DNA of 64,000 nucleotides from Dehalococcoidia bacterium (lineage in GTDB: Bacteria; Chloroflexota; Dehalococcoidia; Lucifugimonadales; UBA3495), in the NCBI GenBank assembly GCA_965249145.1, contig OZ252223.1, forward strand, positions 1,673,757-1,737,756, written 5' to 3'. Each line of letters opens with the position of its first letter. The stretch's first letter is position 1. The notes below the pieces were generated by a model that was not told where the DNA came from, made no database searches, and saw only the letters and a list, made by a program, of their open reading frames with translations. This document shows, in pieces, positions 1,463-63,525 of the stretch. The position numbers were made by a program, and so were the translations under genes.

Positions 1463-2023
1463 TTATTCGATCACGCTGGCGCTTCCGTCGGGGTTGATCT
1501 TGACGCCCACGATGGGCGACGCCTTGTCGTTGAACAGGGCCACCGCTTGCCGCTGGTCAGGGTCCGTTACCAGCAGACCCGCACCTCCGCCGATCACCAG
1601 CGCCAACACTCCCATGGTCAAATACGCGGCCCGCCAATGGAGCTCGGCGATCAACAGCGCCGCCAGGGGTGGGACGACCAGGGTTCCAGCGCCGATGCCG
1701 GAGGCGCCAATGCCCGTAGCCAGACCCCTACGCAGGTCGAACCACTTTTGCAACGTGCCAACGGCAGGTACGTAGGCCATCCTAACACCGAGACCGATGC
1801 CAAGGGCAAAGACGATGTACACCTGCCAAATCACGGTGGCGACGCTGGCCGTAACTAGCCCAACGCCGACGAGGGCAGCGCCCACCGGCCACCAATATCC
1901 GAGGCCCGAGGAAGTCGGCGATAGTCCCAGTGGCCGGCCCAATGCCAAACAGGACCGCCACCGAAACAGAAAACGCGAGGGCCACAGCGAGCCTACCCCG
2001 CCCGTCTCAACAACGCGGCTCAT
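1463..2023 (-). pseudogene. MFS transporter remnant (N-terminal half only, frameshifted)
   Basis: The 186-aa ORF carries TM3-TM6-like sequence (GIGLGVRMAYVPAVGTLQKWF..RRGLATGIG) and ends in the central loop. TM1-2-like sequence (ORF 1782..1985) lies in another frame. No C-terminal six-helix half is present. Confidence 0.55.
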
Positions 2024-9527: not shown

Positions 9528-9570
9528 CCCAGCCGTCACCGACCCACCCGTCACCAATAGGAGGTCCAAA

Positions 9571-10959: not shown

Positions 10960-10977
10960 CCCGCGGGACCGAAAACT

Positions 10978-22052: not shown

Positions 22053-22066
22053 CCCGTATCCTACCT

Positions 22067-22957
22067 TTAGACTTGGGCCCGGCGCAGCCTGGGGTCGAGG
22101 GTATCGCGCAGCCAGTCACCAAAGAAGTTGAAGGCCAACACCACCACCGTGATAGCCACCCCCGGGAAAAGCGAAAGCCACCAGACGTCTAACAGGATGT
22201 CACGGCCTTCCGCCACCATTATGCCCCACGCCGGGTCTCCGGGGGCGAGCCCCAGACCCAAGAAACTCAGGGCGGCTTCCAAGAGAATTATCTGTCCCAC
22301 CAGCAAGCTGGAAATAACGGTCAAGGTGTTGACCACGTTGGGGAAGATGTGACGCCATATAATCACCCGGGTACTGACCCCGGTGATTCGGGCCAAGGTG
22401 ACGAAGTCCTGCGATTTAGCGGCCAGCACGTCACCTCTGACCATACGAGCGAACCGGGCCCAGAAGGTGAGGGCTACCGCCAATATGATGTTAATCGTGC
22501 CAGTGCCCAGGAACACGACTATCACCATTGCCAGCAGGATCGTCGGGAACCCCAGGGCGGCATCGACACACCGCATGATGAGAGCGTCGACCCACCCGCC
22601 CCAATAGCCGGAAATCAGGCCCAACAACGTCCCAACCGCTGCACCGGCCAACAGGGACACGAAAGTGATAATGACGGTAGTGCGCGCGCCGTAAATCAGG
22701 CGGGTGAGAACATCCCGCCCCAGGCTATCGGTGCCCAAGAGATGCGAGGAAACCTCTCCCGGAGCCATGTGTTTGTTCAGGACGTTGATATCCTTGGGGT
22801 CGTGCGGAGCGATTAGCTCAGCAAAGGCGGCACAGACCAGGATGAGAAGCAGAATAAATATTGGAATCCATGGCAAACGGGCCTGACGGAGCCGCGTAAT
22901 CCCCCGCCACAGGCTCGCGCCCTTAACTTCCAGTGCGTTTGGTGTGGTTGCAGCCAT
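22067..22957 (-). CDS. ABC transporter permease (DppC/OppC-like)
   Basis: Six-TM BPD-type permease with the EAA-like loop (ITGVSTRVIIWRHIFPN). Confidence 0.9.
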   Translation of the reverse strand: MAATTPNALEVKGASLWRGITRLRQARLPWIPIFILLLILVCAAFAELIAPHDPKDINVLNKHMAPGEVSSHLLGTDSLGRDVLTRLIYGARTTVIITFVSLLAGAAVGTLLGLISGYWGGWVDALIMRCVDAALGFPTILLAMVIVVFLGTGTINIILAVALTFWARFARMVRGDVLAAKSQDFVTLARITGVSTRVIIWRHIFPNVVNTLTVISSLLVGQIILLEAALSFLGLGLAPGDPAWGIMVAEGRDILLDVWWLSLFPGVAITVVVLAFNFFGDWLRDTLDPRLRRAQV

Positions 22958-22960
22958 CCT

Positions 22961-23887
22961 TTAGACTGTCGTGTACCGAATCCTGGGATCCACGTACGCG
23001 TAGAGTATGTCGATCACCAGTGAAAGGGCGATGTAGAAGAACCCGGATGCCAAAACGGCAGCTTGTACGACCGGGAAGTTCCTGGCCAGAACCCCGTCGA
23101 GAAGCATACGCCCGATGCCGGGCCAAGCGAACACCACCTCCACGACGATGGCGCCGTTGAGCAAACCGGCAAGGCTGATGCCTCCGAACGTGAGCAGGGG
23201 GACCAAGGAATTTCTGAGGGCGTGCTTCCATAGCACCAGCCGCTCATGAAGCCCCTTCACCCGAGCGAACTTGATGAATTCGCTGTCAAGGACCTCCAAC
23301 ATGCTGGAGCGGCCCAAGCGCATCATGCCAGCCATGATGGACCAAGCAAGCACGAAGGCGGGAAGCACGAAGGTGTCGGGACCGCCACGACCGAACGTGG
23401 GCAGGACTTTGAATATCGCGCCAAAAACCAGGATGAGCATGATGGCCACCCAGAATTGCGGGGCCGCCATGCCCAACACGGCGAACAGCTTGGATCCCTT
23501 GTCGAAGATGGAATCGCGCTTGATAGCGGAGAGGATTCCCAGCGGCACGCCAAACAATACGGCCAGTCCCATTCCAGCGGCCGCCAGTTGCAGCGTGGCT
23601 GGGAGCCGGGCGGCCAGCAGGTCCCGTGCGGGGCGGCGGTCCGTGATGGATGTTCCAAAGTCTCCCTGGATCGCGTTCTTCAGGAAGAGACCATATTGGA
23701 CGTAGAGGGGTTTATCCAACCCAAGCTGCTTTCTTATTGCCTCGTAGTCTTCCTTAGCCGAGGCGTCGATGGGCATCAGGTATATCGCTGGGTCTCCCGT
23801 CAAATGCACGCTGAAAAAGACGATGACGGTGAGCGCCAAGAGAGTGAAAATCCCTTGTCCCAGTCTTGTTATGATGTATCGTTGCAT
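22961..23887 (-). CDS. ABC transporter permease (DppB/OppB-like)
   Basis: MQRYIITRLGQGIFTLLALTVIVF N-terminus typical of DppB-type permeases. KGLHERLVLWKHALRN loop. Confidence 0.9.
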   Translation of the reverse strand: MQRYIITRLGQGIFTLLALTVIVFFSVHLTGDPAIYLMPIDASAKEDYEAIRKQLGLDKPLYVQYGLFLKNAIQGDFGTSITDRRPARDLLAARLPATLQLAAAGMGLAVLFGVPLGILSAIKRDSIFDKGSKLFAVLGMAAPQFWVAIMLILVFGAIFKVLPTFGRGGPDTFVLPAFVLAWSIMAGMMRLGRSSMLEVLDSEFIKFARVKGLHERLVLWKHALRNSLVPLLTFGGISLAGLLNGAIVVEVVFAWPGIGRMLLDGVLARNFPVVQAAVLASGFFYIALSLVIDILYAYVDPRIRYTTV

Positions 23888-23970
23888 TAGTCTATGGGTC
23901 TATTCACCGGCGAATTTCTACGATTCATAAACCTGTCCCTCCTTTACATGGGAGGTACAGCAAGTGAGAA

Positions 23971-23991
23971 GGGCGAGGACAGGCCTCGCCC
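23971..23991 (-). other. intra-operon hairpin between the binding-protein and permease genes
   Basis: GGGCGAGG / CCTCGCCC 8-bp stem with a 5-nt loop, just 3' of the binding-protein stop. Could act as an attenuator or mRNA stabiliser. No strong U-tract. Confidence 0.35.
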
Positions 23992-24021
23992 TTGCGGTTG
24001 GTTTGCCGGGTCTTCGGTGGT

Positions 24022-45257: not shown

Positions 45258-46415
45258 GTGCCGGACGACCTGCTTGGTCGCGCCCATGCCCTCCTACCCG
45301 AAATACGGGACATGGGCGACGAGATCGACGAGGCGCGGCGGTTGCCGGAGCGGCTGGTAACCAAACTGGCGGACGCCGGGTTCTTCAAGATGACGCTGGG
45401 CGATGAACGCGGCGGCCTCGAAGCCGACCCGTTAACCGCCTGCCGGGTGCTGGAAGCTCTTTCCAGCGCCAACCCGTCGGTGGGCTGGGTGGCGATGATC
45501 ATCGCCTCGACGGTCTACTGGGTGGCGGCAGGGCTGCCGGACGACGAGGCGGAGCAGGTGTTTTCGCCCGGTCCGCCGCCCAACATCGCCGGGACACTGG
45601 TACCCCACGGGCAAGCGGTCAAGACCGATGGCGGCTGGCGGGTGAGCGGACAATGGCCCTTCGGCAGCGGCTGCCAGCACTCTCGATGGTTGGTCAGCGG
45701 CAGCTGGCTCTACGACGGCGAAGACCCCATGCTCGACGAACAGGGGCAACGCCGGTGGCTGGTGTTCCTGACCCCTACTGCCGAATGCGCCATCCTGGAT
45801 ACTTGGTATACCACTGGCCTGCGCGGCACCGGCAGCCACGATTACGCCATGGACGACGTGTTCGTGCCCGCCGGGTTCAGCTTTCCCCACCCGCTGATGT
45901 CGCCACCGGTGCGCCCGGGACCCCAGTATGCCTACCCGGCAATCTCGGTGGCCATGTTGGCGTCGGTCTCCTTGGGGACGGCGCGGGGGGCGGTGGACTC
46001 GCTGATCGAGCTCTTCGGCGGCAAGGTGGACCGCCGCAGCGGTCGTCCGGTTGCCTCGGCCTTCGACAAGCAGGCGGAGCTGGGTGCGGCGGAGGCGTTG
46101 GTGGGCAGCGGCCAAGCCTACCTGCACGAGACCTTGGAGGCGGTATGGGGGCTGGTCGAGCGGGGCGAGCCGCTGCCCCAAGAGCTCCGGGCCCGGATGC
46201 GGCTGGCCGCCACCAACGCAATGTCGGCGTCGGTGGCGGCGGTGGACCAGGCCTACGCCGCGGCCGGGGCCAGCTCGATCTACGTGTCGTCGAGCTTGGA
46301 ACGATACTTCCGGGACGTCCACACCGCGGCGGCCCACGCCTTCGTGCGCCCGGCGACGCTGGCCGACGGCGGCGCCATGCTGTTGGGACTGCGCCCGTCG
46401 CTGCCAGTATTCTAG
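45258..46415 (+). CDS. acyl-CoA dehydrogenase family protein
   Basis: GTG start. 385 aa with ACAD N-terminal, middle and C-terminal organisation (TTGLRGTGSHDYAMDDVFVP). Confidence 0.85.
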   Translation: MPDDLLGRAHALLPEIRDMGDEIDEARRLPERLVTKLADAGFFKMTLGDERGGLEADPLTACRVLEALSSANPSVGWVAMIIASTVYWVAAGLPDDEAEQVFSPGPPPNIAGTLVPHGQAVKTDGGWRVSGQWPFGSGCQHSRWLVSGSWLYDGEDPMLDEQGQRRWLVFLTPTAECAILDTWYTTGLRGTGSHDYAMDDVFVPAGFSFPHPLMSPPVRPGPQYAYPAISVAMLASVSLGTARGAVDSLIELFGGKVDRRSGRPVASAFDKQAELGAAEALVGSGQAYLHETLEAVWGLVERGEPLPQELRARMRLAATNAMSASVAAVDQAYAAAGASSIYVSSSLERYFRDVHTAAAHAFVRPATLADGGAMLLGLRPSLPVF

Positions 46416-46458
46416 GGGGCGCTAAAAGGTCTGGAGAGCGCTGAACGGAGGAATCACT

Positions 46459-46821
46459 ATGGCTGATGAGTCTCAAAGGGCCTCAGCCCTACATGCTCAA
46501 GGGAAGACATACTTCGATGCTGCAAGCAGTGACCATGAACATGCTGCCATATTCAAGCCGGACCTGGCCAGCGCATTGCAAATGGTTCGCCGATACGACG
46601 AAGCAGTCTCCCTTTACGAACAATCCTCCGGCGACCAGGGCGAGCTTGAGTCGTTCGCGAGCAACGAATTGGCCGAGCTCCAAGAGCGTAGGCGGCAATG
46701 GCTGGTTCCAATGGATGGGCCGCATTTGACGTCCGACGATGAGCGACTCCTCAAGATTGCAGCCCCGATGATCGCCAAGTACCCCGCGATAGTCCATCCC
46801 TATACATATGATGTGGGTTGA
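46459..46821 (+). CDS. hypothetical protein; possibly the N-terminal part of a split HExxH protein
   Basis: 120 aa at the first lower-G+C sequence after the core genes. GGAGGA RBS. Overlaps the next ORF by 14 nt in another frame. Confidence 0.4.
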   Translation: MADESQRASALHAQGKTYFDAASSDHEHAAIFKPDLASALQMVRRYDEAVSLYEQSSGDQGELESFASNELAELQERRRQWLVPMDGPHLTSDDERLLKIAAPMIAKYPAIVHPYTYDVG

Positions 46822-47071
46822 TGATTCGAGAGATTCACTGCTACGAATCCGGGAAATACAGAATGAACAAGGCACCCCCGCGGATCAGTGGCTAGAGTCA
46901 TTGGACGGGTGGGAAGCGTTAGGGTTGATCATCGGCAGCTCCCACTGGATTCTAGTCAAAAGCGTGTGGAGGAATGCGGAAGAGTCCGAGTTGTGCGGCT
47001 TGCTTAGCCACGAGCTTGCTCATGAGGAACTTAAAGATACCTTCAGGGAGCACCTAGTTGACCGTCGCTAA
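46808..47071 (+). CDS. hypothetical HExxH-motif protein, truncated-looking
   Basis: 87 aa with LLSHELAHEEL 17 residues from the stop. No downstream third metal ligand. Confidence 0.4.
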   Translation: MMWVDDSRDSLLRIREIQNEQGTPADQWLESLDGWEALGLIIGSSHWILVKSVWRNAEESELCGLLSHELAHEELKDTFREHLVDRR

Positions 47072-47091
47072 AGGATTCGGGGCGGAACTAT

Positions 47092-47123
47092 TTAATTCTG
47101 TCCAACTAACCTGGTCCACCTCA
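47092..47123 (+). repeat. 32-bp direct repeat, copy 1
   Basis: TTAATTCTGTCCAACTAACCTGGTCCACCTCA matches 56833-56864 at 31 of 32 positions. Confidence 0.85.
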
Positions 47124-47335
47124 GTTCAGGTAAGCAATCGCTAATGCCCGTATCCTTGACGCAGGCGTCACACACTGTCGGATGACGCCTCAAGTGAAGC
47201 AACCAACCCGGATCACCAAATGGAATCTTTTTTCTCACGACCCAAACCAGAGCAGAAGGGCCGATCGTACGAGTCGCCCATTAGTCATCGTCCCAACGAT
47301 GCTCTCGGCAGGTGTAGCTTCGGACGCACGCTAGG

Positions 47336-48700
47336 ATGAATTTTCACCGGACCGCGCGCGATGATGCTCGGGCGGGCGGGGGTGATGACCTTGATTTGGC
47401 TTCACCGATTGATCGCCCCGCGCCATCGCTAGGTGGCTTGCTGCTCGTCTCCCTGTTGGTGATGTTGAACCTGCCGATGACCTTCACCTTACTTACCGGA
47501 ACAGACCCATACGGCTTCTTCACACTAGAGTCCGTATCGGCCTATCCTCTGCCGCTCGTTCTGTCTACCGGGCTGAGTTCGGCCCTTGCCCTTGTGGGGT
47601 ACGTTGGTTATCGCTGGCTGCGGAGGCGTCAGCTGTGGTTCACAGGAGTTCATTGGAGTCCGATCGCGAGGGGCGCGGTATTGTGTGGGCCGCCTGTGCT
47701 TCTCGCATACCTACCGATCATCGTCCTATCGAGCCACGGGTGGAAGCCAACTCATTTGGCGTTGGGAGCGGTGATTGCCGGAGCGCTAGCCGTCACCCAC
47801 TGCCTTAGAGACGAGGAGATGCACCTGGATCCAGCGATGGGCAGATACTGGTTCATCTGCATTCTAGGCTCGATCCTTGTGTTCCTCGTCCTCTGCATTG
47901 GCGCAATGATCGTGCTGTACGAGGTCGAGCAGTTCCCCGCGTCCGGCAATATCCTGTGGGCATGGGAATACCGCTGGTCAGAACTAGGGTATCCCCCAGA
48001 AGAGTATGACACACGGCACCGCGACGGTCTCCTGGCCTTTACGGCGATTGGAGTGGGTTTCATGATCGCGGCGCTCGGTGGGAGCATGATGGCGGCGCTC
48101 CTCAGGTGGACGCGTTCGCCCGACTCGGTAATCTCGAATTCACTGGACACTCACCGGCTTCAGGACGCCCCTCCGTGGGTCACGGAAATCGGTAGTCAAC
48201 TGGATGCGCTCGAACCACCCGCTCCGGGTGAATCCAGGTATGCCGCTCTTTTCAGCGGCTACAGGATCGACATCACTGGCAGCCAGTACGAGTGCTTGGC
48301 CGCTCTCAAGGATGATCTGCTGAACGGCGTCGATTTGATTGTCGACAGGGTCGCGGGCGACGTTTTCGTTCAGAGCGCCGGGACTTGGACACGGCTCGAC
48401 TTCCGCGTCCGAGGTCGATCGGGCGGCACATGGAGCGGTCCGTTCTTGCTATTATGCATATTGGCACGGCACCCAGGCCGGAGATTCGCGAGCGCCGAGC
48501 TGCGGGTCCTTCTGGAGTCCGAGCTTGCCGACCGGGCTTGGTTCAACGTGGGTGACTTCATCGCACAGCTTCAGCGGAGACGTCGTCTCCCTGTAGGGCG
48601 AGATGAAAGGGGTTCATTCTTACAAGAGAGTATCAGGGTATGCCTATTGGAGCATCAACGGAAACCGGTTGAGCGCCATCCCGAGCAAGCCAACGAGTAG
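47336..48700 (+). CDS. polytopic membrane protein with C-terminal OmpR/PhoB-type winged-helix-like domain
   Basis: 454 aa. Several hydrophobic helices in the first ~260 aa. The C-terminal FLLLCILARHPGRRFASAELRVLLES...VGDFIAQLQRRRR resembles the trans_reg_C pattern. The start is uncertain. Confidence 0.55.
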   Translation: MNFHRTARDDARAGGGDDLDLASPIDRPAPSLGGLLLVSLLVMLNLPMTFTLLTGTDPYGFFTLESVSAYPLPLVLSTGLSSALALVGYVGYRWLRRRQLWFTGVHWSPIARGAVLCGPPVLLAYLPIIVLSSHGWKPTHLALGAVIAGALAVTHCLRDEEMHLDPAMGRYWFICILGSILVFLVLCIGAMIVLYEVEQFPASGNILWAWEYRWSELGYPPEEYDTRHRDGLLAFTAIGVGFMIAALGGSMMAALLRWTRSPDSVISNSLDTHRLQDAPPWVTEIGSQLDALEPPAPGESRYAALFSGYRIDITGSQYECLAALKDDLLNGVDLIVDRVAGDVFVQSAGTWTRLDFRVRGRSGGTWSGPFLLLCILARHPGRRFASAELRVLLESELADRAWFNVGDFIAQLQRRRRLPVGRDERGSFLQESIRVCLLEHQRKPVERHPEQANE

Positions 48701-48891
48701 TTGTAACAACCACAGCAGTCACTGGTAATAGTTGCGACCCACTCCGCCCTTGGAAGGAGGGCCGGAATTCGTAGCCATTCCACCTCTACGCCTATCCTAT
48801 CCCTGTCCTACCTCTGTTAGGGTTCTTTGTCCCTTCTCCGGTCAGCAATAATTCCCTGCAGGCTTTGTTCCTCGAGTTAAGCCAAGGGGGT

Positions 48892-49179
48892 ATGGCCGTG
48901 AACGATATTGTGCTTCAGAACGCAGCGGAGTACGACCGGCGTAAGGGTACCCTGGTCTTGACCAGAGAGGGGATCCACTTCGTCGAAATCAGCCGCACCG
49001 GGTCCGGACAAGCCTTGTTCTACGTTCCCAGTGAGGACCTCGCTGCGGAGCTTGAAGGGATGTTTAGCAAGCGAGTCAAAGTAATCAATACAAGTGATGA
49101 TGAGACGCACGTTGTTAAGGTGGCGAACGCCGAAGGATGGGTGCGGACAATCGCGACCTTGAAATTGGAGGCCCGATAA
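48892..49179 (+). CDS. small PH/GRAM-like domain protein 1
   Basis: ATG at 48892 after AAGGGGG. KGTLVLTREGIHFVE strand motif and a C-terminal helix WVRTIATL. Confidence 0.5.
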   Translation: MAVNDIVLQNAAEYDRRKGTLVLTREGIHFVEISRTGSGQALFYVPSEDLAAELEGMFSKRVKVINTSDDETHVVKVANAEGWVRTIATLKLEAR

Positions 49180-49502
49180 TGGCGATTTACCGAGGTGGCG
49201 AGAGACTCATAAAAGAAGCATCGGCGAGGGAGGCGGACATCAACGTCTCCGGGACCCTCTCCCTCACCAATCAGCGGTTGATCTTCGAGAGGGTAGAGGG
49301 CTTGTTTAGCAAGAAACGGAGCACCCATTTCGATATCGCGCTGGACTACATACGGGGTGTTGCAACAGAAGGCTTTTTTTCCAAGTCGCTGACCGTGGAA
49401 ATATCGGATGGCGGAGAATTTGTCCAGTACAAGTTCTCGATTCCCGGGGCTGAAGAGTGGGAGGCTGAAATCAGGACCGCTGTGCAACAGTACGATGATT
49501 GA
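49179..49502 (+). CDS. small PH/GRAM-like domain protein 2
   Basis: The ATG overlaps the upstream stop (TAATG). SGTLSLTNQRLIFERVEGLFSKK..HFDIALDYIRGV and a C-terminal helix EEWEAEIRTAV. Confidence 0.55.
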   Translation: MAIYRGGERLIKEASAREADINVSGTLSLTNQRLIFERVEGLFSKKRSTHFDIALDYIRGVATEGFFSKSLTVEISDGGEFVQYKFSIPGAEEWEAEIRTAVQQYDD

Positions 49503-49702
49503 GTAGCGGACGGCGGAGTCCCCGGGGTGGATGGTCTTGCTCTCGGAGAAAATCTTGCATCTTAGCGACTGACCCATCACCGCCGATTTGGTTACCCGCG
49601 CCGGACCCTCATGTCTACGGTCCGCTCGGTACCACGGTCAACCGCGAGCTCAGCCAATGCATGTGCCGAACAAATGTATGGGATTAAGGGACAGGAGGCG
49701 TC

Positions 49703-50230
49703 ATGCCATTAACCTTGGCTCCAGGAGAAACAACACGCCATGAGGCAAGGGGTAAGAAACTGAGAGTTTGGGTAACAAACCGGCGCCTTGTCGTCGAAGA
49801 GTCAGGACTGGGAGGCTCTGCTCTTACCTCGCTGCCCCTGGAGAAGATTGACCATGTTCTGTACGCCCGCACCAGTAGGCTCAGATGGCTAGTGATTGGG
49901 GCGATTCTCGGTATCGTTGGCCTTGTTACGCTCAGTGAAAATAGTAATGGCGGTGGGGGGTTAATCGCTGTCGGCGCAGTCTTTGTGATCATTTACTTCC
50001 TGAGCCGCAGGCAACGAGTGGTATTCGCGACACAGGGGAGCGAGATTAGCTTGGAAGCCAAGGGTTTTGGGGCAAACGCGATCGAGAGTTTCCTTTCCGC
50101 TGTCGAATCGGCCCGTCAGGCCCACCCTCAGGTAGCTGCGGCACCCAGGCCGGCGCCCGAGACACGCGGCCCCGAGACACGCGGCCCAAGGCCATCGGCT
50201 TCTCCCCCCAGAGTCGAGGTGGCCGAGTAG
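49703..50230 (+). CDS. PH-like protein with an inserted transmembrane hairpin and Pro-rich tail
   Basis: AGGAGG RBS. KLRVWVTNRRLVVEE..LPLEKIDHVLY, then two hydrophobic helices, then VVFATQGSEISLEAK and the helix IESFLSAVESA. A tandem PETRG PETRG is also present. Confidence 0.55.
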   Translation: MPLTLAPGETTRHEARGKKLRVWVTNRRLVVEESGLGGSALTSLPLEKIDHVLYARTSRLRWLVIGAILGIVGLVTLSENSNGGGGLIAVGAVFVIIYFLSRRQRVVFATQGSEISLEAKGFGANAIESFLSAVESARQAHPQVAAAPRPAPETRGPETRGPRPSASPPRVEVAE

Positions 50231-50251
50231 GCAGAGGATAGTCAGCGCATT

Positions 50252-50677
50252 ATGTTTGACTGGTTTTACAGGCTTGAGTACGAGTTCTACTACCATACCT
50301 ACGACTGGCTCTCTTTCGTGTATGAATGGATTCCGGCCAGGTATGTTTTCATTATCGTGCTACTGCTCATCGGGAGCGCCATATTCTACCTGGCCAGGCG
50401 ATTCCGAGGTGGGGGTCCCATTGGGTTCGGGAGCATGGGGACAGCCGGAAGAATTGACCGGAACTCTCCCCAAGAAGGGCAGCCCAATCCGACACCGGCC
50501 GCCATAGCTGTTGAACCACCACCGCTGGATGAGCTGGAGCAGCAGATCCTGGAGCGAGTGATCGCGGGCGCCAACCAGTTATCGGTCTCGAGTCTGGCGG
50601 AGGAGTTGGAGGTCCCGGCTGAGGAGATTCGGGCTGCCCTCGACGGCTTGGCAGAGAAAGGGCACATCATGCTGTGA
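50252..50677 (+). CDS. single-pass membrane protein with C-terminal winged-helix-like domain
   Basis: TM segment YVFIIVLLLIGSAIFYLA. The C-terminal LEQQILERVIAGANQLSVSSLAEELEVPAEEIRAALDGLAEKGHI resembles a MarR/wHTH unit. Confidence 0.5.
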   Translation: MFDWFYRLEYEFYYHTYDWLSFVYEWIPARYVFIIVLLLIGSAIFYLARRFRGGGPIGFGSMGTAGRIDRNSPQEGQPNPTPAAIAVEPPPLDELEQQILERVIAGANQLSVSSLAEELEVPAEEIRAALDGLAEKGHIML

Positions 50678-50949
50678 AGCATGTTGGGCCACCTTAAAAA
50701 TTTCCTCCGCGATGATCGTTGTCGTAGGTAGGCGCGTCCTGAATAGTCGTCACCAGTTTCGAATGGACGATCCGGGGGTCCTCCGACGCGCCTGGACTCC
50801 CTAGATAGCTCTTCAGTAGGGATGACGGCCATGGATGGAATTCCATGCACGAGACCGCAGTCTTGGGTCTATATCCAACTCGCACCGGCTGACGGAACTC
50901 GGACTAGGGGTGGGACTGGCCGAACTGGGATCGTTAAAGGGGGTTATTG

Positions 50950-52128
50950 ATGGCTCTGCGAACAGCATGGGCTCAGCTAATTCGGCGCTTGGCTTACGGG
51001 GTCTTGGCTGCCTTGACCGCCGGCGGCCTTGCCGCCTGCGGTGGGGGTTCTACAGCCGGGGATGGAATCGCGGGGCTGTTGGCGCTGGTTCCCGACACCT
51101 CCGAAACCCGTCAGTTCGTCGCCGTCAATGATTACGCCAAGGCCCGCGACGCCTTCGCCATACCCCTGCCGGGCGACAGCGCCGACGAAGAGGATATATC
51201 CGACTACATAGCGGCGGTCCTTTCGGGTCAGACAGGGGTGATGCCGGGTCCATGGATCAGCGGCTTCAGCGAGCACGGATTTGCCTTCCCTGACAACCGC
51301 GAACATCTGGGGTTCGACGTGCGAAATGTCGAATTCAGCATCATGGCAGGATTCCCTCCCGGTGTTTTGGAGGTGGTCAAAGGGCGATTCAATCCGCAGG
51401 CTACGGAGCGGGTCATCGAAGGATGCTCGGAATGTCCTCCTCCGGAAAGAAAGGAAGTCGAGGGGACCGAATTCTACAGCTGGTTCGGAGACCACGAGAT
51501 GTCTCTCCAAGACCGCCTCAGACCCCCCGCGTTCGATGCACTGGGCAGAGGCGGGCGGATCGCGGTGCTGGATTCTCTGGTCTTCCGGACCGTGGAGACC
51601 CCTGGAATGAGAGCCTTAATTCGGACGTTCCGGGGGAAGGAAGACTCGTTGGCAGATGATTCGGACCTGGCATTGGCCGCTGAGAAGATGGACAGTCTCG
51701 AAGTCTATTCCGGGCTGCTGATTGGCGACACGGCGTCCCTTGGCGCGGATGCCGTGATTGAAGGCCTCTGCGCCAACGTCAGCTCGCGGGAGTGCCGTCA
51801 GATCGAGGATGCGATTACCGGGGGAGTCGGCCCACTTGACGAATATGAGGCTCTGGGGGCCGGGGTTGGAAGAGACGAGGATGGCACGTTCAACGCCGTG
51901 ATTTTCGTGTACGGCAGCGAGGATGCCGCGAAGCGCAATGCCCGGCAATTCGAGGAGCTGCTAGAGCAAGGAGAAAGCATCCTCGCTCGCCGCTCATGGA
52001 GCGAGATCGTGCTCGATGCCGATGTGTGGGCGGAAGACAGGACTGTCATAGGAAAGCTGAGGTCGATAAGCCCGGCACTCTGGGTGCAGGCAGTACATGC
52101 TCGGGACTCGCTGTATATGCACGAATAG
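50950..52128 (+). CDS. hypothetical lipoprotein
   Basis: ATG at 50950 after AAGGGGG. Signal peptide with lipobox LAACGG. No recognised domain. Confidence 0.6.
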   Translation: MALRTAWAQLIRRLAYGVLAALTAGGLAACGGGSTAGDGIAGLLALVPDTSETRQFVAVNDYAKARDAFAIPLPGDSADEEDISDYIAAVLSGQTGVMPGPWISGFSEHGFAFPDNREHLGFDVRNVEFSIMAGFPPGVLEVVKGRFNPQATERVIEGCSECPPPERKEVEGTEFYSWFGDHEMSLQDRLRPPAFDALGRGGRIAVLDSLVFRTVETPGMRALIRTFRGKEDSLADDSDLALAAEKMDSLEVYSGLLIGDTASLGADAVIEGLCANVSSRECRQIEDAITGGVGPLDEYEALGAGVGRDEDGTFNAVIFVYGSEDAAKRNARQFEELLEQGESILARRSWSEIVLDADVWAEDRTVIGKLRSISPALWVQAVHARDSLYMHE

Positions 52129-52134
52129 CCACTG

Positions 52135-52449
52135 ATGGCTAGAGCCCATGTCTATAGCGGAGCCGACGGGACCCACTGCGCCTCCGGCGACACCCAGCCT
52201 AGCGGCCACGGGGCCACCGTTCAGGCTCTGGGTGACATCGCCAATTTTAACCTTGAACTCGCCGATGCTGTTGCAGCGTACCCTTGGGTAAGAGACGGGA
52301 TCAGTGGGCGAGCGGGCCGGGCTGTCGAGAGTCTCAAGGGTATGGGGTCAAATTACAGTGCACTGGCCCAACTGTTGGAACAACCATGGTTCACTGACGG
52401 AATTGATGACGAAGAATTCGTATTTATCGGGATCCCGGACGTTGCGTAG
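52135..52449 (+). CDS. hypothetical protein, probably a fragment
   Basis: 104 aa with PWVRDGI / PWFTDGI repeat units. A further in-frame-shifted remnant (YYSGLVESHYALANTPPGLEDDF...) follows up to about 52590. Confidence 0.35.
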   Translation: MARAHVYSGADGTHCASGDTQPSGHGATVQALGDIANFNLELADAVAAYPWVRDGISGRAGRAVESLKGMGSNYSALAQLLEQPWFTDGIDDEEFVFIGIPDVA

Positions 52450-52831
52450 GATACTACTGGCTTGAACTATTATTCGGGTTTGGTTGAAAGCCACTATGCT
52501 CTAGCCAACACTCCGCCCGGGCTTGAAGACGATTTTCGCGATGTGTACGGTCGGATCCATGGCGGACCGTACGCCGACCCGGAGAAGTAGTGCTGTGCCG
52601 ACCAAGTTCTGAAGTGTTGATACGTCCGTTCCGGTCGCCTGAAGTGCAGAATGAAGTGCCCCACGGTTATGTACACCAAAGGCCGACTCTGCCTCGCTTC
52701 TCAAGCCGATGCTAGGGTCGTCTGCACTAGAAACCCGGACGGAAACCCCTTGTTTTGAAGAGTGAATCCGGCATCAGGAGCGGCGCGGTCACGGCTGTCC
52801 CGCGAGCCCACCCTAACCGGGCAGGGCCCGG

Positions 52832-54478
52832 TTAGGCGGCACGGTTCGGGGTTCCCGCCCCGGTATTGGCGCCTATTCCCGCCTTGGCCGCGATCAGGGT
52901 CAGGTTCGCCACCGTGGACGCCAGGTATAGCTGGAACCGGGTCTTGATGCGACCGAAGTAGCGGGACTGACGGACCCCCAACTGGACCATCCGGGCCAGC
53001 CGGTGCTCCACCACGACCCGTCGCCGTCGATACTCGGCAAAGGCTTCGCTCTGCTGGAGGGCGCGTGCCTCCTGCAAAAGGGCTTCTTGGGGGTGTAGCC
53101 GCACCGTCCGGCCGATGCCCGGTCCCGCCGCGACACATTGGGCCCGCAGCGGGCACGCTCCACACACCGCCCCGCCGAACTGGAAACCTTCCAGCTTGTG
53201 ATTTCGGCCCGTCAAGTCGGTCCGCCGCTCCGCCTTGCGCATCTTGCCGGTAACCTGCCCAGCCGGACAGGTGCAGGTCCCAGCCTCCAGGTCAATCCTG
53301 AAGTCCTCCTTGGGGAAGTGGGACCTGTTGGGACGTCCGGGCACCTTGGCAATCAGCCGGCGTCCGGCGTCGGCGAAAGCCTGACGGGTGCCTCCATCTC
53401 CGTACGCCGTGTCGCCCATGGCCTCCGCCACCGGCACACCGGTGCTGGCCTCGCTCTGCTCCACCAGTTCCAGCGCGCCGGCGCTGTCCCAAGCGTTGCC
53501 GGCCAGAACGTCCACGGCGGTGATCAGTTGGGAATCGGTGTCCACCACCACCGCCGCCTTGTGCCCGTCGAACCGCTTGCTGCTGCTCTTGTGGCCGTGG
53601 CGCATCTCCGGGTCGTGGACCGACAATATCCGGTCCTTGCTCACCCCTGTCTTTAGGCCAACTTCCCCACCGGACCGTTCCACGTCCTGGAGCAGCAACT
53701 GCCCCAGCAGCTCCGCCGCGTTCACGATTCCCTGCCGCTCAACGCTCTCCTCAGGCAATTCCCGCCGCGCCTGCCGCGCCAGTCCCAACAGCCGGTCCGC
53801 GTCAGCCACGATCGATGCCAGCAGGGACGCCCGCGCCCGCTGGTCCGCCCAGTCGATGGCCGCCTCACCCTTCACGCTGGAGCCGGTGTACCGCCCATAG
53901 TCGTGGAATTCAGCCCACTCTTTGACGGAGGACTTCTCCACGGCTGCCAGCGCCCGCAACAGCTTGACGATCCCGTCCGCCACCAGGTTGCAGGTATCCT
54001 TGACTGCGCCCCGGCCCAGGATGTACGTCGTGTCCAATGCCACCCTCATGCCACGTCTTTTCAGGTAGCCGGACTTCCGGGCCAGCCGCAGGCTGGATTC
54101 GAATACCTGGCGCACCTTGTCGTGGAGGACCAACTGCGCGCGGAATACCTGTAGCGTGCTCTTGGCGAAGGGCCGGTCTTCAACCTCAATCCCCAAGGCC
54201 ACTTTCCAACGGATGTCGAAGTCGGCCCTGGCCTTGGCTTCGGCGTCGCTCACCTTGTCGTAGCACTGGAGCAGAAGCGCCGTCGCCAGCTGGCTGGGCG
54301 GCACGCTCTCGCGCCCGTTGTCGGGACAGTAGAACTCGGCAAAGTCAGCATCCCGGAACAACTGCCCACGCAGCGAGGCCAGCACACCGTAGAAGGTGTC
54401 CCGCCCCACATGGTCGAGGTACAACCGGTCGGCTTCCCAGAGGCCCCTTTGATCAGACCGCTCTCCCAGCATCCCCAC
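52832..54478 (-). CDS. DDE transposase, IS5/IS1182 superfamily (DUF772-type N-terminus, Cys motif, DDE_Tnp_1-type C-terminus)
   Basis: 548 aa, apparently intact. NGRESVPPSQLATALLLQCYDKVSDAEA, CGACPLRAQC and VVVEHRLARMVQLGVRQSRYFG motifs. Element ends are unresolved (see findings). Confidence 0.85.
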   Translation of the reverse strand: MGMLGERSDQRGLWEADRLYLDHVGRDTFYGVLASLRGQLFRDADFAEFYCPDNGRESVPPSQLATALLLQCYDKVSDAEAKARADFDIRWKVALGIEVEDRPFAKSTLQVFRAQLVLHDKVRQVFESSLRLARKSGYLKRRGMRVALDTTYILGRGAVKDTCNLVADGIVKLLRALAAVEKSSVKEWAEFHDYGRYTGSSVKGEAAIDWADQRARASLLASIVADADRLLGLARQARRELPEESVERQGIVNAAELLGQLLLQDVERSGGEVGLKTGVSKDRILSVHDPEMRHGHKSSSKRFDGHKAAVVVDTDSQLITAVDVLAGNAWDSAGALELVEQSEASTGVPVAEAMGDTAYGDGGTRQAFADAGRRLIAKVPGRPNRSHFPKEDFRIDLEAGTCTCPAGQVTGKMRKAERRTDLTGRNHKLEGFQFGGAVCGACPLRAQCVAAGPGIGRTVRLHPQEALLQEARALQQSEAFAEYRRRRVVVEHRLARMVQLGVRQSRYFGRIKTRFQLYLASTVANLTLIAAKAGIGANTGAGTPNRAA

Positions 54479-54622: not shown

Positions 54623-55165
54623 TGACCGGCAGGGTGCAGGTCCCGGTTAATTGGTTTACTGGCCGCGGAGCCTACGCGGCATACGCCGGGTTGGCCCGCC
54701 ACAGCTTCAGCAGGTTGTGGGTCAGGGCCACCAGGGTGAATTCGCCGGCCACCTTGCCTATGCCCCGGAGCAGGAATTGCCTAAAGCCCCGGACCTGTTT
54801 GATCAGCCCGAAAACCGGCTCGGTGATGGCCTTGCGCCGGGCGTAGACCGCCTTCCCCTCTGGGGTCTGCAGCTTGGCCCGCATCGCGGCCCTGAGGGGC
54901 GTACGGGTCCGCACCCGGCCGCCGCTGACCGGCAGGGTGCAGGTCCCGGTTATTGGTTTACTGCCTACGCGGCATACGCCGGGTTGGCCCGCCACAGCTT
55001 CAGCAGGTTGTGGGTCAGGGCCCCAGGGTGAATTCGCCGGCCACTTGCCTATGCCCCGGAGCGCCTAAAGCCCCGGACCTGTTTGATCAGCCCGAAAACC
55101 GGCTCGGTGATGGCCTTCGGGCGTAGAGCTGCAGCTTGGCCCGCATCGCGGCCCTGAGCGGGTCC
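54623..55165. repeat. tandem direct duplication (about 303-bp unit) of the transposase 3' end; the second copy is decayed
   Basis: TGACCGGCAGGGTGCAGGTCCCGGTTA occurs at 54623 and 54926. Copy 2 follows copy 1 colinearly but carries several small deletions. Confidence 0.8.
54672..54995 (-). pseudogene. IS1182 transposase C-terminal fragment
   Basis: RRKAITEPVFGLIKQVRGFRQFLLRGIGKVAGEFTLVALTHNLLKL is the conserved C-terminal DDE_Tnp_1_6-type motif. Confidence 0.7.
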
Positions 55166-56270
55166 GCAGCCGCTCCCGGTAGTGTCTCTCCCTTCCCGTC
55201 GCTCGATCCTCTTTCCAGCCAATAGCCCCAGGTCCCGTTCGCTGCCCCGCATCGGCGGTGAAACGTTGGGGACGCCGCTCCCCCTCGAGCAGTCCCAGGC
55301 TGGCCAGGTTCCGCTCCATCAGTTCCAGCACGGGTGCCAGCCGGGGGCTGTCGGCGCTCTGGGCGCTCACCTCCTGGGCCACGATCACCCCGCTCTCCTC
55401 CTCCACCAGCACCTGGGCGTTGTACCCTTGCACCCAGCCGTGGGAACTCTTCATGATCCGGCTGTCCGGGTCGGTGAAGTTGCTCTGCTCCTTGGGGCCG
55501 GGCACCGCCTTGGCCGCCGCCTCTTCGGTCTCGGCCTCGCTGGCTCCCCTGGCTTCGGCCCGGCCCTTGGCCCTGGCCTTGGCCTTGGCACGCTCTTCAA
55601 GCCTCGCCTTGGCCTCCCTCAGCTTGGCCAGACGGCTCTCCCGTCTCTGCAGCTCTGCGGGCAGCTCGTCCTCCCGGTACTCCGGGCCGAACTCCTCGTC
55701 CTCGGCCTCGTCAATCTCCTGGGCCCGGCGCAGCATCTCCTTTACCTCGGTCTCCAGCCGCAGCCCGGTCTCCAAGATCCGCCCGTAGCTCATCGCCTTG
55801 TGCTTGGACGCGTTGGCCTGGTACTTGCTACCGTCCAATGAGAGGTGTCCCAGCTTGAGCAACCCCGCCTCCCGGCACAGCCGCAATACCTCCAAGAACA
55901 GCCCCTCAAAGGCTTCCAAGTGGTTCTTCCGAAAGTCGGACACCGTGCGGAAATCGGGGAACTGGCCTCCGGAGAGCACCCTAAAGGCCACGTCGCTCTC
56001 ACAGGCCGAGGCTATCTTCCGGGAACTGTAGACCCCCCGGCAGTAGCCGTAGAGCAGCACGGTCAAAAGCATCCGGGGATGATAGGCCCGGGGGCCCCGG
56101 CCCTTCCGGTAGCGCCGGGTGATCTTCTTCAGGTCCACCATCCCCACCGCCTCTTCCAAAAACAGGGCCAGGTGCCCCTTGGGCAGCCACTGCCGGGGCT
56201 CTTGCGGCAACAGATAGGTTTGGTCCAGCGAGTAGTCCCGAAATCCCTTGGCCATCTTCCACCTCCCCAC
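55065..56270 (-). pseudogene. IS1182 transposase N-terminal and coiled-coil part, truncated after the ADAG motif
   Basis: MAKGFRDYSLDQTYLLPQEPRQWLPKGHLALF..FTDPDSRIMKSSHGWVQGYNAQ..FTADAG, then out-of-family sequence. The central catalytic part is missing. Confidence 0.75.
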
Positions 56271-56986: not shown

Positions 56987-57015
56987 TTGACTCTTGCCTT
57001 CTGGCTACATATAAT
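56987..57015 (+). promoter_or_regulatory. near-consensus sigma70 promoter upstream of the 23S rRNA gene
   Basis: TTGACT (56987-56992), exactly 17 nt, then TATAAT (57010-57015). An A/T-rich stretch (CATATATTTT) lies upstream. Confidence 0.6.
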
Positions 57016-57234: not shown

Positions 57235-60304
<3,070 letters not shown>

Positions 60305-60389
60305 ACGCAATGAATTTCAAACTTTGGCAGCACTTCTAAGTTCCCTGTTCTCTTCGCCAGCCCCGCGCCCGCAGGGTTGGCCGCAGCGT

Positions 60390-60464
60390 CGCGGGGTGGA
60401 GCAGTGGCAGCTCGTCGGGCTCATAACCCGAAGGTCGTTGGTTCGAGTCCAACCCCCGCTACCA
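60390..60464 (+). tRNA. initiator tRNA-Met (CAT)
   Basis: CGCGGGGTGGAGCAGTGGCAGCTCGTCGGGCTCATAACCCGAAGGTCGTTGGTTCGAGTCCAACCCCCGCTACCA. Nearly colinear with E. coli tRNA-fMet. Has three G-C pairs closing the anticodon stem, a 1:72 mismatch (C-U), and an encoded CCA. Confidence 0.9.
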
Positions 60465-61329: not shown

Positions 61330-62232
61330 ATGCCAGTGGAAAAAGTACGCACTTTCTGGGAGAAAACCAGGGCAGAACTGGATGAAGTACCTATGAACGC
61401 CTCATTGGCGGAGGTGGAGGACGCCGACGTTCTCACCATGGAAGGTCGCATCAAGACGCGGACCATTTACCGGGTAGTCATGGCCAGCTTCCAAGGTGTC
61501 AACATAAGGGCCTGGTACACCCTGCCTACTGGGACGCCTCCAGCCACCGGTTGGCCCGCAATCATGGAAGTGCCTGGTTACGGTGGGACCATGCCCTTGC
61601 CGGCCCACCTTTCTCAATACGGCTATGCCACCCTGTCTTTGTACCCTAGAGGTCAAGGTGAGAGCTTGAAGGAGTGGGAGATTGAGACCGGCACAAGGGT
61701 GGTCTACAACCTGACCGACAAGGAGCGGTACTACTACCGAGGCGCCTACATGGACTGTGTCCGAGGAGTGGACTTTCTCGAGAGCCGCCCGGAGATCGAC
61801 TCCCAACGCATCGGAGTCTGGGGCTTTAGCCAGGGAGGCGGGCTTACCCTAGCGACGGCGTCGTTAGACCATCGAGTTACTGCGGCCGTAGCCGGTGTTC
61901 CGTGGCTATGCAACTTCCCGGTGGCCGCCACCGTCACCACCGCCCCCTACGTCGAACTCCACCATTGGCTGGAGGAACATCCCGACGACCGGGAACAGGC
62001 CATGTCTACGCTGACTTACTTCGATCAGCTAAGCTTGGCCGACGGTATCGACTGCCCCGTGCTGGTGGGTGGGTCCATAATCGATGAGGTACATCCATTG
62101 AGCACGGTTATGCCGGTATTCGAGAACATTCCCTCAATGAAATCCATCATCGTCTATCCCGACTTGGAGCACGAATACCGCACCGACTTCACCCACCACG
62201 GCAAGGCCTGGATGGACCGATACTTAAGATAG
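61330..62232 (+). CDS. acetylxylan esterase / cephalosporin-C deacetylase family (AXE1) alpha/beta hydrolase
   Basis: GGAGGAGGAG RBS. GFSQGGG nucleophile elbow and the YPDLEHE region. 300 aa. Confidence 0.85.
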   Translation: MPVEKVRTFWEKTRAELDEVPMNASLAEVEDADVLTMEGRIKTRTIYRVVMASFQGVNIRAWYTLPTGTPPATGWPAIMEVPGYGGTMPLPAHLSQYGYATLSLYPRGQGESLKEWEIETGTRVVYNLTDKERYYYRGAYMDCVRGVDFLESRPEIDSQRIGVWGFSQGGGLTLATASLDHRVTAAVAGVPWLCNFPVAATVTTAPYVELHHWLEEHPDDREQAMSTLTYFDQLSLADGIDCPVLVGGSIIDEVHPLSTVMPVFENIPSMKSIIVYPDLEHEYRTDFTHHGKAWMDRYLR

Positions 62233-62553
62233 CAGCCGCTGGTGCGCACTACACTAAATGTAATAAGCAAGACCGAATCTGACACTCTTGGACCACGCTC
62301 GTGGACCGCAGATAAGCAGGAAGCATGATGGAGATAGGGGCACGATTATCGATGGTCCCGTATTCCCCTCCGGCTATAAACACTAAGGTCCAGTGGAGCG
62401 AGGGCTAGTTAGGTGTTCTGCACAAAACTGGACTCAGAGAGTGCCCAAGGCGACCCTAACGCTGTACGTGGGCGAGGGTAGCGTGAGTGGGCCGGAGCTC
62501 CGCCAGCCGCGCCCGCAACTTTGGGCAGCGGATAGTTCAGAGGAGGCCTAGCC

Positions 62554-63525
62554 GTGAAGTACGGAATCATGTTGCCTTCACGAGGCGACTTGGCCCGCCC
62601 CGACAACATTATCCCCATTGCCAAGAAGGCGGACGAGCTCGGCTTTGCAGTCATGATGTTTCCGGACCATATCGTCCTGCCCAATCAGGTTGATTCGCCC
62701 TACCCCTACACCCAGTCCGGCATTTTTCCGGCTACGGATACCAATGAGGCCACAGAGCAGCTAACTATGCTCGCCTTTCTGGCGGGTCAAACGGAGTCCA
62801 TAAGGCTAGTTACCAGCGTGATGATCGTGCCCCACCGGCCCCCCGTCCTCACCGCCAAGATACTGTCCACCATCGACATGCTGTCAAACGGCCGGGTAAC
62901 CGTGGGCGTCGGAGTTGGCTGGCTGCAAAAGGAGTTCGAAGCGCTGCAAACGCCGCCCTTCGAGGAACGAAGCGCGGTTACCGACGAATACATCCGGATA
63001 TTCAAAGAACTCTGGACCAGCGAGTCTCCGAGCTTTGAAGGAAAGTACTGTAGTTTTTCCGACCTGTCCTTCCTGCCCAAGCCGGTGCAGAAGCCGCATC
63101 CCCCCATCTGGGTGGGCGGCGAGAGCCGCCGGGCCCTGCGCCGCGCCGCCGAGCTAGGCGACGGTTGGCAACCGATCGGGACCAACAACCAGTTTCCTTT
63201 AGCTGCTCCAGAGCAGATCGCTGCTGCCATGAGAAGATTGGACCGGTACGTAGAACGAGCTGGCAGGCCCCAGGGTTCGGTGGAGGTTATATGCAGGATG
63301 CATGGTTATAACCTCGAGACCGACGGCGGAAGGCCTGACTCCCCCGACCGGCCAACCTTCACCGGCAGCGCCGGGCAGATAGCGTCGGACATTCGGCGGT
63401 ATGAGGAAATGGGAGCTAGCCACTTGATCGCCGCCTTCGTACCAGTCGCTCAATTGGCCAACAGTCAGGAAGAGATGGTCCGGGACATGGAGCTATTGGC
63501 CGATCAGGTCTGGCCCAAGGTGTGA
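62554..63525 (+). CDS. LLM-class F420-dependent oxidoreductase
   Basis: GTG start after GAGGAGG. MKYGIMLP.., DHIV and GRVTVGVGVGW motifs typical of the TIGR03619-like group. Confidence 0.85.
   Translation: MKYGIMLPSRGDLARPDNIIPIAKKADELGFAVMMFPDHIVLPNQVDSPYPYTQSGIFPATDTNEATEQLTMLAFLAGQTESIRLVTSVMIVPHRPPVLTAKILSTIDMLSNGRVTVGVGVGWLQKEFEALQTPPFEERSAVTDEYIRIFKELWTSESPSFEGKYCSFSDLSFLPKPVQKPHPPIWVGGESRRALRRAAELGDGWQPIGTNNQFPLAAPEQIAAAMRRLDRYVERAGRPQGSVEVICRMHGYNLETDGGRPDSPDRPTFTGSAGQIASDIRRYEEMGASHLIAAFVPVAQLANSQEEMVRDMELLADQVWPKV

Follow-up and report, generated by a model that had tools for sequence, protein, structure and literature searches.

The interval considered here spans positions 46440-52720 of a 64,000-nucleotide stretch of Dehalococcoidia DNA from contig OZ252223.1 (the window, meaning this whole stretch) and carries nine open reading frames (ORFs), o1 to o9, all on the + strand. 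None of the nine reaches a curated Pfam or NCBIfam cut-off, in agreement with the original prediction, made from the window's sequence, that none has a confident functional family. The interval is a compositionally foreign, flexible-genome segment of a Dehalococcoidia chromosome, in which three genes (o3, o6 and o7) constitute a lineage-restricted, conserved module of predicted membrane proteins; the remainder consists of decay and hitch-hikers. The genes of the module are as follows:

47336-48700, + strand: o3, 454 amino acids; six transmembrane helices, then an OmpR/PhoB-like winged helix (about residues 301-440)
49703-50230, + strand: o6, 175 amino acids; putatively PH/DUF6232-like, split by a transmembrane hairpin
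50252-50677, + strand: o7, 141 amino acids; one transmembrane helix and a predicted cytoplasmic winged helix-turn-helix

The G+C content of the interval is 57.5%, compared with 63.4±1.2% in equal-length segments upstream of position 57000 (minimum 60.5%), and the G+C fraction at third codon positions (GC3) is 0.59-0.69 in its ORFs, compared with 0.77-0.91 in most core genes of the window, so that composition and codon usage both deviate from the host in the manner of a genomic island. In 300-nt windows, G+C falls abruptly from 0.69-0.73 at 45800-46400 to 0.51-0.61 within the island, and this fall coincides with the stop codon of an acyl-CoA dehydrogenase gene, which shares a GC3 of 0.86 with the adjacent enoyl-CoA hydratase gene; it returns to 0.65-0.68 near 52700, at the start of an insertion sequence (IS). 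The composition drop noticed previously is real, and the direction of the earlier spot figure of 48-57% G+C holds, but the value itself was somewhat too low. Homologues of o3 elsewhere have a GC3 of about 0.72, resembling that of their own flanks, whereas the copy in the window (0.67) differs from the window's core genes. Since its GC3 is near that of its homologues and unlike that of host core genes, this copy looks imported into a higher-GC3 genome. The nine ORFs lie on a 3,420,922-bp Dehalococcoidia contig, and at 90% identity every one of them is a singleton.

The o3, o6 and o7 proteins and their linkage

o3 represents a small family of polytopic membrane proteins. When 1.84 billion representatives were searched exhaustively with HMMER (E ≤ 1e-3), 226 cluster representatives were found, and 62 homologues show 38-75% identity, none of them with a Pfam domain; all relatives are labelled as Dehalococcoidia, SAR202 or Chloroflexota metagenome-assembled genomes. 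In the alignment, a variable linker separates the strongly conserved N-terminal membrane region from a C-terminal domain of ~140 residues that is also conserved. The AlphaFold model (predicted local distance difference test score, pLDDT, 78) comprises six transmembrane helices (residues 31-259), then a beta-sheet, three helices and a beta-hairpin wing. When this model was compared with the PDB using Foldseek, all credible matches were DNA-binding domains of the OmpR/PhoB family, including BaeR, CosR, SaeR, PhoP, PhoB, NsrR, AdeR and ToxR (8b4d_C), with target-normalised TM-scores of 0.49-0.63 and root-mean-square deviations of 3.2-4.0 Å over ~106 columns, while the transmembrane part has no credible Foldseek match in the PDB. 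The o3 profile also finds a weak match to ArlR DNA-binding domains among PDB sequences. Hydropathy and a positive-inside count predict an N-in/C-in topology, with 10 Lys and Arg residues on even loops versus 3 on odd loops, which would put the winged helix on the cytoplasmic side; 'TGxDxYGFFT...P.P' and 'GN..W.W...W.DLGYP.EE', the most strongly conserved pair of loops, would face outward. That o3 is a polytopic membrane protein with an OmpR-like winged helix at its end, as described earlier, is borne out by the model and its matches, and the C-terminal domain is assigned, by fold only, as a predicted cytoplasmic winged helix of the OmpR/PhoB type. o3 is accordingly named here as a putative membrane-integrated one-component regulator.

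The membrane module of o3 also occurs in a second arrangement. In most HMMER matches below the top ~50, it is located at the C-terminus, and 6 of the 10 such or longer matches scanned against Pfam carry an N-terminal XRE-type helix-turn-helix (HTH_31/HTH_3), the matches being weak and one of them above the gathering score. The same N-terminal XRE-type motif is present in the paralogues of loci L055-L068. In L055-L063 (about 9390-10790 in each), these are proteins of ~460 residues that combine the N-terminal XRE-type helix-turn-helix with an o3-type six-helix membrane module, and such paralogues adjoin amidohydrolase and LytB/IspH genes in SAR202/Dehalococcoidia. DNA-binding domains thus appear, from these domain assignments, to be a recurrent partner of the o3 membrane module. 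That one membrane module has been joined to DNA-binding domains of two unrelated kinds, one at either end, is the principal argument that o3 may be a membrane-tethered DNA-binding regulator. Separately, at L079:6732-9733, an AAA_14/DUF4143 ATPase gene runs 4 nt into the start of an o3 homologue, and in about 10 other loci (L064-L073, about 8720-10700) the same ATPase precedes proteins of ~235 residues that share only the first ~80 residues of o3.

o6 matches the Pfam family DUF6232 with an E-value of 7.6e-5 and 23.6 bits, short of the gathering cut-off of 27.4 bits. DUF6232 is matched by 10 of the 14 members of the o6 family, all below the cut-off, and some members match bPH_3 (E 0.01-0.03). 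The family is characterised by an N-terminal half containing the conserved pattern 'PGE...VTNRRLV...LPLE.ID', a transmembrane hairpin and a C-terminal half, and both ends are predicted to be cytoplasmic by hydropathy and the positive-inside count. The 175-residue family F192 (L030/L033) was considered as an analogue of o6 and rejected (hhalign E 0.2), F192 being another lipoprotein.

o7 belongs to a family with an aromatic-rich N-terminus, a single transmembrane helix, a Pro-rich linker and a helix-turn-helix of ~50 residues, for which the same topology analysis predicts an N-out/C-in orientation. The window's o7 matches GntR with an E-value of 3e-5, and 10 of 11 family members match GntR, HTH_11 or MarR_2 (best E ~1e-7), which upholds its earlier description as a transmembrane protein with a winged helix.

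The linkage of these three genes was followed through related loci, of which 70 with o3 relatives were retrieved and six more were obtained by exact look-up, their ORFs being searched by iterative hidden Markov models. Downstream of o3 homologues, the o6 family is found in 13 other loci, the o7 family in 14 and both in 7, that is, in 14, 15 and 8 o3 loci, respectively, when the window is counted. The gene order o3, o6, o7 is invariant and the o6-o7 gap measures 14-21 nt in the 8 loci, and this order persists over o3 identities of 43-75%, including loci at 43-46% whose flanks are unrelated. A search seeded with o6, independent of o3, recovered three homologues, all of them in o3 loci (L012, L079 and L080). 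Both L080 and L012 match the backbone of the window, with o3 followed by o6-o7 and unrelated genes in between, and L080 also has a repeat-protein gene downstream. In the window, o3, o6 and o7 are intact and retain the family-invariant residues. The co-occurring cassette that had been proposed therefore survives for o3-o6-o7, which keep the same order in other genomes, but not for all nine genes: none of the related loci contains a homologue of o1, o2 or o4, and homologues of o8 lie in unrelated contexts without o3, so that a single nine-gene system is not supported. As a side observation, L080:1-4298 contains genes for a serine recombinase/resolvase pair and for an excisionase-like HTH_17 protein just upstream of its o3 homologue, and the module of that locus may ride on an integrative element.

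Downstream cargo, accessory genes and borders

The genes downstream of the o3 module in relatives mostly encode large proteins with a lipobox and low-complexity linkers, whose domains include LRR, RCC1, SBP_bac_5, VWA, subtilase S8, AhpC/TSA, PPC/CARDB and an M1-like HExxH. Lipobox-containing ORFs of ≥300 residues account for 21 of 78 co-oriented downstream ORFs versus 16 of 152 other neighbours (Fisher p = 0.002), a difference that is indicative only, given non-independent loci and a crude regular expression. In one clade (L005-L012 and L018; about 9400-11650 in each locus), the o3 homologue is ~95% identical in nucleotide sequence among copies per genome and species representatives; the identity extends over 0.4-0.6 kb upstream and ~200 bp downstream, beyond which homology ends abruptly and the cargo is unrelated. 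The lipoprotein leader 'MTRWLAYGILTVALACLLAGCNGDS' is common to some of these cargos. The corresponding positions of the window, together with the related lipoproteins needed to interpret them, are occupied as follows:

50950-52128, + strand: o8, 392 amino acids; intact lipoprotein with lipobox LAAC and a TP0453-like alpha/beta fold
52129-52590, + strand: o9 remnant, a pseudogene that includes ORF o9 (52135-52449), with an in-frame TAG at 52447
L001:12013-14670, L001:17698-20223, L018:11579-13831, L024:6668-9226 and L015:4337-6208: repeat-plus-HExxH lipoproteins, a Pfam-less family

o8 encodes a predicted TP0453-like lipoprotein, an assignment drawn from its LAAC lipobox and from a Foldseek match of its AlphaFold model (pLDDT 90.6) to TP0453 (E 1.6e-6, probability 1.0, TMt 0.58); the lipoprotein recognised earlier is thereby confirmed. 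Its 33 homologues are stand-alone proteins of about 390-420 residues from Chloroflexi/SAR202, and none of them occurs in o3-related loci. Because these homologues lie without o3, o8 is treated as cargo or a hitch-hiker, outside the module.

Of a repeat-plus-HExxH lipoprotein, the o9 remnant preserves the final 'Y.WL.DG....E' repeats and the tail at the extreme C-terminus, having lost the signal peptide, most repeats and the HExxH domain of ~200 residues. Its counterpart is an 885-residue protein that follows the o3 homologue in L001 and is laid out as a signal/transmembrane segment, VEVIKEV repeats, a PT-rich linker, 'Y.WL.DG....E' repeats of ~36 residues, an HETAH...E domain and a conserved tail. 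In BLASTP against this protein, the repeats match with an E-value of 5e-14 and the tail is 73% identical (E 4e-11), residues 656-857 of the L001 protein being gapped. The 'fragment' of the original prediction is indeed a gene fragment, and its reading frame extends past the TAG to 52590. The conserved tail of the family reads 'GLEDEFRDLYRRLHGGPYAD', and Peptidase_M1 is matched by one member only (E 2e-4). A 27-locus single-linkage cluster, 'F4', was rejected as a single cargo family, as it proved to be heterogeneous, with low-complexity linkers and lipoprotein leaders holding it together; only ~5 loci and the remnant in the window make up the true repeat-plus-HExxH family. o8, o9 and the tail remnant share one frame (50947-52590), with TAGs at 52126-52128, 52447-52449 and 52588-52590, which is probably a coincidence rather than read-through. 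That o8 and o9 form one interrupted gene was ruled out, the homologues of o8 being stand-alone proteins of ~400 residues.

The remaining four genes of the interval lie before o3 or between o3 and o6:

46459-46821, + strand: o1, 120 amino acids; Pfam TPR matches only, at E 0.01-0.16; GC3 0.60
46808-47071, + strand: o2, 87 amino acids; HELAH near the C-terminus
48892-49179, + strand: o4, 95 amino acids, soluble; AAGGGGG Shine-Dalgarno motif before the ATG at 48892
49179-49502, + strand: o5, 107 amino acids, soluble and putatively GRAM/PH-like; translationally coupled to o4 (TAATG)

o4 and o5 are best described as candidate extra GRAM/PH-like proteins inserted between o3 and o6. The matches of o5 are sub-threshold (E 0.03-0.07) and comprise bPH_1 (0.03), GRAM (0.05), Vps36-GLUE and bPH_3; its one homologue, 46% identical and located directly after the o3 homologue in L045, matches GRAM at E 4e-4. 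Similarity between o5 and o6 is marginal (E 1e-3 to 1.5e-2) and limited to the N-terminal hairpin, although the strand motif 'G.L.LTN.RL.F' is common to o5, its L045 homologue and the o6 family, and neither the o5 nor the o6 profile finds a meaningful match among PDB sequences. o4 has no PH match of its own in Pfam; its hhalign match to the o5 family (E 3e-4 over 69 columns) suggests that it is probably a diverged, GRAM/PH-like paralogue of o5. Three consecutive PH/GRAM-like proteins, as previously proposed, are therefore plausible but unproven: the claim is carried for o5 and o6 by their sub-threshold family matches and for o4 only through its similarity to o5. An ESCRT-II-like reading, in which the Vps36-GLUE match would be combined with the winged helices, was set aside as generic PH-fold similarity (E 0.04-0.08).

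o1 and o2 overlap by 14 nt in different frames, and no homologue of o1 was found in 80 related loci, nor one of o2 in the related loci, the protein databases not having been searched with o1 or o2. The Pfam matches of o2, Peptidase_M48 (E 0.043) and PhageMetallopep (E 0.057), both lie below cut-off, and 15 residues follow the HELAH motif. For the 'split HExxH protein' claimed earlier, the motif is thus present in o2, and the related loci offer no homologue for comparison; candidate readings of o2 are a metallopeptidase or a frameshifted half of o1.

The spacing of the nine ORFs is uneven, with the o4/o5 overlap (TAATG) and the 21-nt o6/o7 gap at one extreme and four spacers of ~190-270 nt at the other, so that of the 'one strand, tightly packed' arrangement the common strand stands and the uniform packing does not. 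The starts of o4 (48892), o5 (49179) and o8 (50950) were revised, each being preceded by a Shine-Dalgarno-like motif. A structured RNA or riboswitch in the long spacers was considered and rejected, as a permissive Rfam search was empty and the fold z-scores were -0.1 and +0.5.

At the left border, o1 starts 43 nt past the acyl-CoA dehydrogenase stop. The right border is formed by two adjacent elements, in accordance with the IS elements and remnants predicted at this end:

52832-54478, - strand: IS transposase #1; Pfam DUF772 and DDE_Tnp_1_6, IS1182/IS5-like, with a host-like GC3 of 0.82; right border of the low-G+C segment
54536-56366, unstranded: IS element #2; perfect 24-nt terminal inverted repeats (repeat search), Pfam matches on 55065-56270 and 54672-54995

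The transposase of the second element is broken into pieces by an internal tandem duplication of ~293 bp (e.g., 54670-54729 = 54963-55022). Beyond the IS elements lies a 23S rRNA gene (57235-60464), with no 16S upstream and no 5S downstream in the window and with a tRNA-Met at 60390-60464 after it; the rRNA genes of the window appear unlinked. ARAGORN reports a 94-nt tRNA-Thr (GGT) at 1514-1607 (- strand), which is absent from the Rfam tRNA model matches at the gathering score and may be an unusual or false tRNA. Two more stretches of lower G+C (0.57-0.59; GC3 0.70-0.74), at 61330-63525 and 22000-24000, encode an acetyl-xylan-esterase-like hydrolase, a luciferase-like monooxygenase and two further ORFs.

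Proposed function, rival explanations and relation to known systems

The preferred explanation, in which confidence is evenly divided, is that the interval is a flexible segment whose o3-o6-o7 module acts as a regulator of adjacent lipoprotein genes. The two conserved extracytoplasmic loops of o3 would most likely sense an envelope or external cue, and its C-terminal winged helix, cytoplasmic in the predicted topology, would most likely bind DNA. o6 and o7, as co-inherited partners, probably adjust the activity of o3 or work together with it at the membrane, and the probable targets are the variable large-lipoprotein genes that usually follow the module. In the window, the cargo would be represented by the TP0453-like lipoprotein o8 and the decayed repeat-plus-HExxH remnant; the setting of the module there is partly decayed, and any function ascribed to it is presumptive. 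Dehalococcoidia and SAR202 bacteria are abundant and uncultivated, and to our knowledge next to nothing is known of their sensing of the environment or of the control of their surface proteins. If the explanation is true, o3 would be a candidate regulator for large LRR, RCC1, SBP and protease lipoproteins. The triad can be defined well enough for use in profiles and surveys, and so can three Pfam-less families, namely the o3 membrane module, the o8 family and the 'Y.WL.DG' repeat-plus-HExxH lipoproteins.

Several observations weigh against a regulatory role in an imported segment. The Foldseek E-values of o3 exceed 0.05, because the query was the whole protein, and no sequence profile assigns o3 to Trans_reg_C (Pfam). 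A scan for promoters and terminators returned signals below chance expectation and is uninformative for this phylum, and no common operator-like motif was found across the four intergenic spacers of the window. About one quarter of the o3 loci are without obvious co-oriented cargo, and some relatives hold several near-identical o3 copies, each before unrelated cargo, a pattern unexpected of dedicated regulators. Phylogenetically, the related loci are also non-independent. As for the insertion itself, a border search found no integrase, tRNA or att-like repeat flanking the island, and a synteny test in which the flanking acyl-CoA dehydrogenase was compared with metagenomes yielded no close relative, the best match being 59% identical on a 1.7-kb contig.

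An unlikely alternative is that there is no system at all, and that unrelated lineage-specific genes have gathered and decayed as a patchwork next to the 23S rRNA gene, at an IS-rich hot spot of recombination, with an o3-o6-o7 order that is simply inherited among relatives. Such a patchwork would accommodate the genes without a homologue in the related loci (o1, o2 and o4), the o3-free contexts of o8 homologues, the pseudogene, the two adjacent IS elements and the four long spacers, which suggest several transcription units; it is countered by the retention of the o3, o6, o7 order down to 43% o3 identity while flanking genes differ, by the o6-seeded search yielding o3-linked loci only, and by the preserved 14-21-nt o6-o7 spacing and three intact proteins with invariant residues. 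Distinctly improbable, too, is the view that DNA is not the target of the winged-helix and PH-like domains and that o3, o6 and o7 form a membrane complex that exports, anchors or quality-controls the adjacent lipoproteins. All three proteins are predicted to be membrane-bound with cytoplasmic domains, PH-like domains often bind lipids or peptides, and the occurrence in one genome of ~95% identical o3 copies that keep the 200-bp downstream spacer, and in some cases the lipoprotein leader, ahead of unrelated cargo counts in favour of such a complex, since a duplicated identical o3 is hard to rationalise as a regulator. The OmpR/PhoB fold, however, is overwhelmingly DNA-binding, and the triad has no ATPase, protease or transporter signature; moreover, the fusion of the o3 membrane module to an XRE-type helix-turn-helix in paralogues suggests DNA binding as the common denominator.

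The near-identical o3 heads before unrelated cargo also allow a reading with a conserved head and swappable cargo. Here, the head would comprise the regulator gene, the conserved downstream spacer and sometimes the lipoprotein leader, which together would serve as a fixed platform for expression and recombination. The triad could then be an unrecognised membrane-embedded gene-control device in which diverse surface lipoproteins whose repeats (LRR, RCC1) resemble those of eukaryotes are swapped behind a conserved head, providing cell-surface variation in Dehalococcoidia that are probably host-associated; this is regarded as a doubtful possibility with little probability assigned to it. A role in anti-phage defence or exclusion as mobile-element cargo is less probable still, indeed very improbable. 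The foreign composition, the adjacent IS elements, the serine recombinase and HTH_17 genes upstream of the o3 homologue in L080, and the location of other related loci beside Mrr, Uma2, PIN or AAA_14/DUF4143 genes would fit it; against it, PADLOC-DB v2 returned no defence signature but only generic winged-helix matches of o7 (E 0.006-0.04), PHROG returned no match for the region, relatives of o3 are absent from 2.9 million viral contigs and from plasmids, the region has no match in phage DNA, and the interval contains no nuclease, NTPase or toxin-like effector. The defence role suggested earlier is unsupported by these searches: a defence system was ruled out for want of anything specific in PADLOC, and a prophage or plasmid origin by the empty PHROG, viral-contig, plasmid and phage-DNA searches.

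The components of the island can be compared with several known families. TP0453 of Treponema pallidum (PDB 3k8g-3k8j), for which membrane-insertion behaviour has been described, resembles o8 in being a lipoprotein and in fold, whereas sequence identity is ~10%, o8 is ~140 residues longer, and its host is a monoderm-like Chloroflexota organism, unlike that of TP0453. Bacterial PH/GRAM and DUF6232 proteins are approached by o5, its L045 homologue and the o6 family, which match them consistently below the gathering score; unlike these proteins, o6 has a transmembrane hairpin inserted in the domain. The paralogues with an XRE-type helix-turn-helix (L055-L063, P0175, P0186 and P0212) possess a six-helix membrane module homologous to that of o3 (profile ~13-250, E 1e-15 to 1e-30) and, like o3, are predicted membrane-tethered DNA-binding proteins; they differ in the N-terminal position and XRE type of the DNA-binding domain and in a core context without o6, o7 or lipoprotein cargo. 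OmpR/PhoB response regulators of two-component systems combine a receiver with a cognate kinase, whereas o3 has no Response_reg match in Pfam and the interval contains no kinase; for lack of a receiver domain, o3 is not regarded as a response regulator.

The closest parallel is provided by membrane-integrated one-component regulators of the ToxR/CadC type (PMC5430869, PMC7888679). As in these proteins, a membrane anchor or sensor and a predicted cytoplasmic winged helix of the OmpR/PhoB type are united in one polypeptide with neither receiver domain nor kinase, and small membrane partners are encoded alongside (compare ToxS and TcpH). ToxR and CadC have an N-terminal DNA-binding domain, a single transmembrane segment and a C-terminal periplasmic sensor, an architecture that o3 does not share: its domains run in the opposite order, the winged helix lying C-terminally, and it has six transmembrane helices and no periplasmic domain, only two conserved loops. 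It also differs in having no sequence-level Trans_reg_C match, in being found in Dehalococcoidia only, and in its partners, which are a putative PH-like protein with a transmembrane hairpin and a second membrane-tethered winged helix. o3 is therefore likely to be a taxonomically narrow variant of the membrane-bound transcription factors, with a presumed mechanism of the kind outlined above; should it indeed be a membrane-integrated transcription factor whose polytopic sensor module is new, a new architecture would be added to the small ToxR/CadC class.

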